Below, in pieces: positions 48,086 through 49,998 of a stretch of DNA of 64,000 nt. The notes under the pieces were generated by a model. That model ran no database searches. It was not told the DNA's origin and saw only the letters and a list, made by a program, of their open reading frames with translations. A program made the translations under genes and the position numbers. Source of the stretch: Escherichia coli (GTDB lineage Bacteria > Pseudomonadota > Gammaproteobacteria > Enterobacterales > Enterobacteriaceae). Within the stretch, counting starts at the first letter, position 1. Each line of letters opens with the position of its first letter. The stretch lies in the NCBI RefSeq assembly GCF_016903815.1, contig NZ_CP069973.1, one strand, 5' to 3'.

Positions 48086-49258
48086 ATGCGTCTGTTTTCT
48101 ATTCCTCCACCCACGCTACTGGCGGGGTTTCTGGCGGTATTAATTGGCTACGCCAGTTCAGCGGCAATAATCTGGCAAGCAGCGATTGTCGCCGGAGCCA
48201 CCACTGCACAAATCTCTGGCTGGATGACGGCGCTGGGGCTGGCAATGGGCGTCAGTACGCTGACTCTGACATTATGGTATCGCGTACCTGTTCTCACCGC
48301 ATGGTCAACGCCTGGCGCGGCTTTGTTGGTCACCGGATTACAGGGACTAACACTTAACGAAGCCATCGGCGTTTTTATTGTCACCAACGCGTTAATAGTC
48401 CTCTGCGGCATAACGGGACTCTTTGCTCGTCTGATGCGCATTATTCCGCACTCGCTTGCGGCGGCAATGCTTGCCGGGATTTTATTACGCTTTGGTTTAC
48501 AGGCGTTTGCCAGTCTGGATGATCAATTTACGTTGTGTGGCAGTATGTTGCTGGTATGGCTGGCAACCAAGGCCGTTGCGCCGCGCTATGCGGTAATTGC
48601 CGCGATGATTATTGGGATCGTCATCGTTATCGCGCAAGGTGACGTTGTCACAAATGATGTTGTCTTTAAACCCGTTCTCCCCACTTATATTACCCCTGAT
48701 TTTGCGTTTGCTCACAGCCTGAGCGTTGCACTCCCCCTTTTTCTGGTGACGATGGCATCGCAAAACGCACCGGGTATCGCAGCAATGAAAGCCGCCGGAT
48801 ATTCAGCTCCTGTTTCGCCATTAATTGTATTTACTGGATTGCTGGCACTGGTTTTTTCCCCTTTCGGCGTTTATTCCGTCGGTATTGCGGCAATCACCGC
48901 GGCTATTTGTCAAAGCCCGGAAGCGCATCCGGATAAAGATCAACGTTGGCTGGCAGCTGCCGTTGCAGGCATTTTTTATTTGCTCGCAGGTCTTTTTGGT
49001 AGTGCTATTACCGGGATGATGGCTGCCCTGCCCGTAAGTTGGATCCAGATGCTGGCAGGTCTGGCGCTGTTGAGTACCATTGGCGGCAGTTTGTATCAGG
49101 CGCTGCATAATGAGCGTGAGCGCGACGCGGCGGTGGTGGCATTTCTGGTAACGGCAAGTGGATTGACGCTGGTCGGGATTGGTTCTGCGTTTTGGGGATT
49201 AATTGCCGGAGGCGTTTGTTACGTGGTGTTGAATTTAATCGCTGACAGAAACCGATAA
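48086..49258 (+). CDS. ydcO: BenE-family membrane transporter
   Basis: Start taken at MRLFSIPPPTLLAGFLAVLIGYASSAAI, internal Met of the track ORF. Confidence 0.85.
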   Translation: MRLFSIPPPTLLAGFLAVLIGYASSAAIIWQAAIVAGATTAQISGWMTALGLAMGVSTLTLTLWYRVPVLTAWSTPGAALLVTGLQGLTLNEAIGVFIVTNALIVLCGITGLFARLMRIIPHSLAAAMLAGILLRFGLQAFASLDDQFTLCGSMLLVWLATKAVAPRYAVIAAMIIGIVIVIAQGDVVTNDVVFKPVLPTYITPDFAFAHSLSVALPLFLVTMASQNAPGIAAMKAAGYSAPVSPLIVFTGLLALVFSPFGVYSVGIAAITAAICQSPEAHPDKDQRWLAAAVAGIFYLLAGLFGSAITGMMAALPVSWIQMLAGLALLSTIGGSLYQALHNERERDAAVVAFLVTASGLTLVGIGSAFWGLIAGGVCYVVLNLIADRNR

Positions 49259-49264
49259 TAAATA

Positions 49265-49291
49265 TCCTCCGGCATAGCCGGAGGTTTTTCA
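49265..49291 (+). terminator. Rho-independent terminator of ydcO
   Basis: cctccggc-ata-gccggagg followed by ttttt. Confidence 0.6.
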
Positions 49292-49299
49292 AATGCGCC

Positions 49300-49960
49300 T
49301 ATAAGGCTCTCTTACCAGCCGCGCCCTAACAGGCGCACACGATCTGACATTTGCATCCAACTTCGTTACTTACGGCCCGTAAACGGGCTGCCCGGATAGG
49401 GAATCGATAACTGCTCTCCCATTTTATCCTCTTCAAGCTGGTGCTTTATGTAATCCTGTATCTTCGCCGTGTTCTTACCCACCGTATCGACGTAGTACCC
49501 TCTGCACCAGAACTCCCTGTTCCTGTATTTGAATTTCAAATCACCAAACTGCTCGTAAAGCATCAGACTGCTTTTCCCTTTCAGATATCCCATAAAGCCG
49601 GATACGCTCATTTTGGGCGGGATCTCCACAAGCATATGGATATGATCTGCACAGCATTCAGCTTCCAGAATCCGTACACTTTTCCACTCACACAGCTTTC
49701 TCAAAATACTGCCTATTGCTCTACGCTTCTCTCTGTAGAACACCTGTCTTCGGTATTTTGGCGCAAAAACTATGTGATATTTACAGTTCCATCGGGTGTG
49801 CGCTAAGCTCTTTTCGTTCCCCATTGGGACCCCCTTTTGATTTCTTGTTTGACACTTGCAGTTGCCAGACCGCAAGGTGTTTTAACAAATCAAAAGGGGT
49901 TTTAATAACTGGCTTAAAGCTGAAAGCTTTCCGGAACCCCCAGCCTAGCTGGGGGTTTTC
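49300..49960 (-). mobile_element. IS200-like insertion sequence (boundaries approximate)
   Basis: Contains the tnpA CDS; palindromes cccccagc-cta-gctggggg (~49935..49955) and ccccttttgatt...aatcaaaagggg (~49843..49905) resemble IS200 left-end structures. Confidence 0.55.
49366..49824 (-). CDS. tnpA: IS200/IS605-family Y1 (HuH) transposase TnpA
   Basis: 152 aa from MGNEKSLAHTRWNCKYHIVFAPKYRR...; HuH motif HIHMLVEIPP; catalytic Tyr region YIKHQL. Confidence 0.85.
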   Translation of the reverse strand: MGNEKSLAHTRWNCKYHIVFAPKYRRQVFYREKRRAIGSILRKLCEWKSVRILEAECCADHIHMLVEIPPKMSVSGFMGYLKGKSSLMLYEQFGDLKFKYRNREFWCRGYYVDTVGKNTAKIQDYIKHQLEEDKMGEQLSIPYPGSPFTGRK

Positions 49961-49967
49961 TGTGCAC

Positions 49968-49998
49968 AAAAAAGCGCCATCTAACGATGGCGCGTCTG
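49968..49998 (-). terminator. Rho-independent terminator of ydcL
   Basis: gcgccatc-gtta-gatggcgc followed by tttttt on the minus strand, just after the ydcL stop. Confidence 0.6.

Follow-up and report, generated by a model that had tools for sequence, protein, structure and literature searches.

Elements of the IS200/IS605 family move by 'peel and paste', inserting 3' of a short target without duplication. The Y1 HUH transposase of the family binds subterminal hairpins; next to each hairpin, immediately on its 5' side, a 4-nt 'guide' base-pairs with the cleavage tetranucleotide. A single strand is cut out as a circle, which enters single-stranded DNA (ssDNA) 3' of the target, mainly the lagging-strand template (PMC6006769, PMC5027513). 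IS608 and ISDra2 share with IS200C, the element described below, the Y1 HUH transposase, the subterminal hairpins, the insertion 3' of a short left-flank sequence, the lack of duplication and the preference for the lagging-strand template (PMC6006769, PMC5027513). They differ in using a bare tetra- or pentanucleotide target (TTAC, TTGAT) and in carrying tnpB, which IS200C lacks.

Salmonella enterica IS200 resembles IS200C in its single 152-aa Y1 transposase, the absence of inverted terminal repeats and the STnc490/art200 region (PMC4513863), as well as in a perfect left-end hairpin/terminator at approximately nt 11-34 and a Shine-Dalgarno stem-loop (PMC4513863, PMC5435999). In Salmonella, the left-end hairpin acts as a bidirectional terminator against read-in transcription (PMC4513863, PMC5435999). 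The role of the 5'UTR stem-loop in sequestering the Shine-Dalgarno sequence is taken from the same work (PMC4513863). Salmonella IS200 is quoted as 707 bp, compared to 711 bp for E. coli IS200C by the ends defined here, and is described as nearly dormant (PMC4513863).

Yersinia IS1541A and IS1541C have the same ends as IS200C (GTGCCCAG...TTTATT), but are 710 bp long, carry C instead of A at left-end nt 5 and reside in another host. IS609 (insQ/yncK) is of the same family as IS200C and occupies the same intergenic site in the same orientation, 1 nt apart. In contrast to IS200C, it is 1748 bp long, has a TnpB-type insQ and a decayed tnpA (pseudogene yncK), and its right end reads ...GTCAA. Class C (IIC) group II introns also choose positions right behind the stem-loops of Rho-independent terminators, which they recognise by structure together with a short sequence in single-stranded nucleic acid (PMC7923331); they are retroelements with an RNA-based mechanism and unrelated sequence, so that their likeness to IS200C is an analogy of niche only. 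A preprint reported that terminators are statistically enriched upstream of IS200/IS605 elements and read this as limiting transposase expression and favouring IS persistence (10.1101/2025.07.22.666184).

Here, we analysed a 64,000-nt stretch of Escherichia coli DNA (the window; contig NZ_CP069973.1), in which an earlier note made from the sequence had placed an IS200-like element between ydcO and ydcL.

The window carries a complete IS200C copy

Taken as a whole, positions 49257-49967 of the window (minus strand) are very probably best explained as IS200C, one of the minimal elements of the IS200/IS605 family, in an intact copy that follows immediately 3' of the T-rich ydcL terminator tail. 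The copy is 711 bp long and its minus strand reads GTGCACAG...GGAGGATATTTATT. Its tnpA gene (49366-49824, minus strand) is intact and encodes a Y1 (HUH) transposase of 152 aa. The product matched Pfam PF01797 Y1_Tnp ('Transposase IS200 like') over profile positions 2-121 of 121 (E=3.8e-38), and the motifs read from the translation comprised HIH at residues 61-63 and C-terminal tyrosines at 110, 111 and 125. No second ORF with family support, tnpB included, was found within 49257-49967. TnpA was identical to RefSeq WP_000526135.1, 'IS200C family transposase', and the isoform name IS200C used here rests on this RefSeq/PGAP naming of the identical protein. A 1301-base segment of the window was 100% identical in 91 complete E. 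coli genomes, where the gene likewise lies between ydcO and ydcL, and identical DNA is labelled 'IS200/IS605-like element IS200C family transposase' in RefSeq. IS200C at ydcO-ydcL is an ordinary, already catalogued insertion sequence, with annotation at this locus in ~100 RefSeq genomes.

Terminal inverted repeats are absent, the two termini being GTGCAC... and ...TTTATT, and a subterminal hairpin was found at either end (left, 49935-49957; right, 49266-49284). Every testable defining feature of the IS200 group was found in the window element. Neither the IS609 ends (CCGGTGCG...GGATGTCAA) nor tnpB/insQ was present; the window element is IS200C, not IS609. The Pfam, Rfam and RefSeq matches and the folded hairpins bear out the earlier description of a single-gene IS200-type element with a HuH transposase and the expected stem-loops.

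The ends of the element were fixed by the points at which similarity stopped across 6 plasmid and ~28 chromosomal copies in a multi-copy alignment. Further evidence came from a head-to-tail junction in YDC107 and from pairs of filled and empty sites. In all copies similarity began at GTGCAC(A/C)AG and ceased after GGAGGATATTTATT, so that E. coli copies are 711 bp long and Y. pestis copies 710 bp. Both ends of the window element aligned with those of every other copy, including Yersinia IS1541A, and its full-length identity to Y. pestis IS1541A was 87.6%. The boundaries of 49300-49960 proposed earlier were wrong, since alignment with other copies and empty sites revealed that they are short by ~43 bp on the right and by 7 bp on the left. 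Two other delimitations were rejected. Comparison of the window with the O157 empty site suggested a net insert of 709 bp with four ambiguous A; no placement of this insert fits the 711-bp tandem unit of YDC107, and both the multi-copy alignment and VCSW5 gave 711 bp. The T-run was rejected as part of the IS, since the tract varies by site (TTTCTT, ATTATT, TTAATT, TTTGTT), occurs in empty sites and is absent from the tandem junction. The copy at the kdsA-ldrA site (CP086618.1, L020 1057-1767) has TTTTTT as its terminus, with an A>T change at IS nt 709 relative to TTTATT, which is still within the TTT(T/A)TT pattern.

Alternatively, the IS200C copy could be a fossil that no longer moves and persists solely for its RNAs (5'tnpA/art200), as proposed for Salmonella IS200. 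IS200 has been described as essentially dormant with regulatory sRNAs (PMC4513863, PMC5435999, PMC12594629), which favours this reading. In contrast to the nearly dormant Salmonella IS200, IS200C is multicopy and polymorphic in the lineage of the window, with 17-30 places per genome in carrier strains. The window copy differed from other E. coli copies at 0-7 nt of 711, and copies in other contexts were at least 99% identical. Together with the intact tnpA ORF, the polymorphism of the insertion (~2% of genomes) and the existence of tandem and variant alleles, these observations make a fossil improbable.

Structures in the left end and 5'UTR

Rfam STnc490 (RF01405, IS200 tnpA 5'UTR) matched positions 49834-49957 of the minus strand over its full length (1-124), with 146 bits against a gathering score of 56 (E=2.7e-31). 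Inside this match lies the perfect left-end hairpin AACCCCCAGCtagGCTGGGGGTT (49935-49957, minus strand; IS nt 11-33), whose 10-bp inverted repeat is 100% complementary (ssDNA fold z=-5.1). By family analogy, it is also the predicted transposase-binding hairpin. A second stem-loop in the 5'UTR (49831-49899, minus strand) covers the tnpA Shine-Dalgarno sequence; its arms, 49831-49846 and 49884-49899, are 94% complementary, and its RNA fold was -40.9 kcal/mol (z=-5.0). The z-scores compare the hairpins with shuffled sequences, and both the left-end hairpin and the Shine-Dalgarno stem folded far better than these. Placed by homology, the antisense sRNA art200 would lie opposite this stem-loop on the plus strand, at roughly 49816-49905.

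In loci L059-L138, out of the 120 genome-contig loci L059-L178, a 17-nt IS200 left-end hairpin, CCCCAGCTAGGCTGGGG, was kept in elements of Bacillota, Desulfovibrionaceae, Oxalobacter, Sutterella, Vibrio and Elusimicrobia MAGs, while the first 8 nt of the left end varied by subfamily. Many left-end hairpin matches were located at contig ends, i.e. the IS breaks assemblies.

The hairpin next to ydcO is the right end of the IS

The empty allele in the O157 strain FORC_044 reads ...aaccgataataaaaagcgccatctaacgatggcgc..., the site being aaccgataataaaaagcgccatc. Its ydcO-ydcL gap is 34 nt long and holds a single hairpin, GCGCCATC/GATGGCGC, which is the ydcL terminator. In the window, this native intrinsic-terminator hairpin, GCGCCATCgttaGATGGCGC, is located at 49974-49993 on the minus strand; it is terminator-like (ssDNA fold z=-5.2) and is the target structure of the insertion. 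The left end of IS200C faces ydcL.

The earlier note had described the element as inserted between two intrinsic terminators, one of them a ydcO terminator. According to this layout, ydcO and ydcL would each have a native terminator with IS200 (49300-49960) between them. On the plus strand, CCTCCGGCatagCCGGAGG followed by TTTTT does lie 8 nt past the ydcO stop and scores as a terminator. However, CCTCCGGCatagCCGGAGG at 49266-49284 is the right-end hairpin of IS200, CCTCCGGCtatGCCGGAGG, which is terminator-like on both strands. This hairpin was found in every IS200C and IS1541 copy fetched, in unrelated contexts that comprise 6 plasmid copies and ~28 chromosomal contexts, and it is repeated in the YDC107 tandem. 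This CCTCCGGC...CCGGAGG hairpin was absent from all E. coli empty alleles of the ydcO-ydcL site, whose 34-nt gap holds the ydcL hairpin only. The two-terminator layout has a negligible chance of being right and is already refuted by the empty-site comparison.

Beyond the right-end hairpin, the element closes with the terminal tract ATATTTATT (49257-49265, minus strand), which ends in TTTATT and matches the preferred target TTT(T/A)TT in form. All copies share the tract and diverge immediately beyond it. The ydcO stop codon TAA occupies 49256-49258, and its last two A (49257-49258) are derived from the IS. IS200C keeps the ydcO C-terminus as ...DRNR* (window 49247-49258), while IS609 changes the end of the frame to ...DRNRY* (K-12, L002 5903-5912). 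A plus-strand Rfam match to Ysr202 (49218-49289) reached 28.6 bits, below the gathering score of 315, and was rejected as a chance match; most of it is the right-end hairpin. The Yersinia sRNA Ysr202 may itself end in an IS1541 right end. Analyses of 3' ends and terminators in strains with this insertion should allow for the IS origin of both the apparent ydcO terminator and the final two stop-codon bases.

IS200C inserts without duplication or loss

At five other chromosomal sites, downstream of guaA, galU, fabF, yccU and kdsA, the filled sequence minus 711 bp was exactly the K-12 empty site, with no duplication and no loss. The same was true at ydcL in VCSW5, where the junction GCGC-TTTTTATT/IS/ATCGG equals the empty allele plus 711 bp exactly. 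The left-end flank is the T-tract of the ydcL terminator, which is T6 in the window (49968-49973, minus strand), TTTTTATT in empty alleles and VCSW5, and T7 in Nord122. In the window and ~90 other genomes the junction is GCGC-TTTTTT/IS/ATCGG, which is 2 nt ('AT') shorter than every empty allele predicts; in this respect the window allele is not a clean insertion product. A T6 empty allele, as precise excision would leave, was found in none of the 5426 genomes searched with 400-nt and 75-nt queries. We take the 2-nt loss in the window as either a later micro-deletion or slippage in the T-tract, or the mark of an imprecise independent event.

Different family members occupy the ydcL terminator tail

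The earlier note had named IS609 near this position in K-12 and suggested a recurrent insertion site. K-12 does carry IS609 between ydcL and ydcO (NC_000913.3, 1503161-1504908), which is textbook annotation, and comparison of the ydcO-ydcL interval across 5426 complete genomes revealed IS609, empty and IS200C alleles. The IS609 junction was found in 3268 of these genomes (60%), the empty site in ~2044 and IS200C in 91-102 (~2%). The K-12 junction reads aaccgata/IS609/ataaaaagc, with the left end of IS609 facing ydcL, as in IS200C. IS609 is cut after GCGCTTTTTAT, at TTTAT in the same tail, one nucleotide before (upstream of) the IS200C point. The exact K-12 InsQ protein was found only at the ydcL locus. 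Hence, at least two different family members entered the same terminator tail.

The left-end flank of IS609 was TTTAT in 3/3 contexts, and IS609 appears to need only this pentanucleotide. Two other IS609-like left ends were located (O145 RM9154-C1, L057; Nord58, L058), one directly behind the gltX terminator hairpin and one inside a TetR-family pseudogene. An apparent small insert in HH45 (NZ_CP116411.1, L025 250-295) was rejected as a further allele; it is an IS609 stub of ~20 nt from the ydcO-side end followed by ~24 C, probably an assembly artefact or an internal deletion.

The suggestion of a recurrent site is thus upheld by IS609 plus IS200C, and IS200C itself occurs there in at least two junction/background variants and once as a tandem. 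In YDC107 (NZ_CP025707.1, L004 456-1877), two IS200C copies lie head to tail at the ydcL site, the right-end TTTATT of one abutting the left-end GTGCAC of the other with no spacer. IS200C may nevertheless have entered ydcL only once, with the T6, T7, TTTTTATT and flank variants arising by later mutation or recombination, so that true recurrence would be limited to IS609 and one IS200C event. We consider the chance of this as substantial but somewhat short of even. In favour of a single entry, the IS cores match at 705/705 positions, the length of the T-tract can mutate and is easily misread in sequencing, and E. coli recombines often. However, VCSW5 combines an unmodified junction with another ydcL/ydcO haplotype (8 differences in 688 nt, different protein accessions), the YDC107 tandem needs a second integration or a duplication, and the ydcL target is an ideal consensus site.

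IS200-group insertion sites mostly combine a hairpin and a T-tract

We aligned the left flanks of 34 unique IS200C/IS1541A sites. All 34 had T at positions -1, -2 and -5. At the other positions, T was present at -4 in 31 sites, at -6 in 28 and at -3 in 23 (A in 8), giving the consensus TTT(T/A)TT. A G+C-rich hairpin with a perfect stem was located upstream in 30 of the 34 sites (88%), compared to 60 of 370 control TTT[TA]TT sites (16%; Fisher p=8e-18) drawn from the window and four K-12 segments, intergenic ones included. By eye, three of the remaining four sites also showed a hairpin, albeit imperfect or with a long loop. Insertion points lay 6-9 nt from the outermost G:C pair. In Yersinia, 9/9 chromosomal IS1541 copies with a located left end, as well as the pMT copy, sit after a hairpin plus T-tract, like IS200C. 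The upstream hairpin was rejected as an IS-borne structure, since no two sites share its sequence and K-12 empty sites have it as well. According to the gene tables, the gene upstream is co-directional in almost every case, and its end lies ~40-120 nt ahead of the left end. The upstream hairpin is the intrinsic terminator of that gene.

A left-end hairpin scan with one genome per species yielded IS200-type left ends from many taxa, namely Vibrio, Brenneria, Edwardsiella, Dickeya, Oxalobacter, Sutterella, Mailhella/Desulfovibrio, Peptococcaceae and other Bacillota, and Elusimicrobia. An upstream hairpin of the same kind was found at 80 of 90 unique left ends, and 86 of the 90 flanks ended in TT (or in TG where the start of the left end was ambiguous).

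The ydcL terminator, with its hairpin followed by TTTTTATT (8 nt), is a consensus target. The site is reused on account of its sequence and structure; the ydcL terminator itself is the target, a reason for the recurrence that had gone unnoticed in the earlier note. A terminator-target rule at the nucleotide level was not found for IS200 in searchable full text. The classical IS200/IS1541 papers and family reviews were beyond our reach and an earlier description is possible; this nucleotide-level rule is the only part of the present findings that may be new.

Target choice by structure or survival of harmless copies

The IS200C target adds a hairpin 6-9 nt upstream of the cut, which lies outside the IS608/ISDra2 paradigm. 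By analogy with the family mechanism, TnpA of IS200C would excise a single strand as a circle and paste it into ssDNA behind the ydcL terminator tail. The GC skew of the window plus strand was -0.03; the IS top strand is the G-rich strand, i.e. the lagging-strand template. With the template strand assigned by the known K-12 replichore map, the IS top strand lay on the lagging-strand template at 6/6 K-12-mapped sites, a count that is confounded with co-orientation to the upstream genes. The A-rich tracts 5' of the left-end (AGAAAA) and right-end (GAAAAA) hairpins may serve as guides for the T(T/A)TT cleavage sites, by analogy with IS608 (PMC6006769). Guide-target covariation is uninformative on this point, since all subfamilies have A-rich guides and T-rich targets.

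The target hairpin could be read by TnpA as a mimic of the element's own right end, which consists of a hairpin and ATATTTATT (9 nt), and TnpA would then treat the terminator as a pseudo-right-end. The likeness in form between the right end and the targets would explain the head-to-tail tandem in YDC107. We tentatively propose that IS200-group transposases may choose targets by structure plus sequence, with the ssDNA form of a terminator (a G+C hairpin and TTT(T/A)TT 6-9 nt later) acting as a right-end mimic, although we regard this as a possibility rather than the expected outcome. Sequence conservation is lacking among the target hairpins, whereas the TnpA of IS608 recognises its own hairpins by specific features.

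Alternatively, IS200 could enter any T-rich sequence, and the association with terminators would reflect survivorship only, with harmful insertions purged. All of the data come from fixed copies, post-terminator positions are plausibly the least harmful, and the preprint reads upstream terminators as aiding IS persistence (10.1101/2025.07.22.666184). Survivorship on its own is nonetheless unlikely. The spacing of the G:C stem is restricted to 6-9 nt and positions -1 and -2 are invariant, the hairpin is far more frequent at insertion sites than at control TTT[TA]TT sites, the same rule is seen on plasmids and in distant phyla, and the right end of the element, itself a hairpin plus tract, is the point at which the tandem copy sits. 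We infer hairpin recognition by TnpA from the positions of surviving copies, to which selection for harmless post-terminator sites would contribute too.

The ydcL locus illustrates how IS200/IS605 elements build up at some intergenic sites, with a terminator tail providing a hairpin as well as the T-rich motif for cleavage. Should TnpA truly require the hairpin, this would extend the 'guide tetranucleotide' model and explain low-cost persistence in the host. If target choice does work in this way, terminators would form a 'safe-harbour' niche, comparable to that of group IIC introns, for the IS200 group as a whole, which ranges from Enterobacteria to Bacillota and Desulfovibrionaceae.
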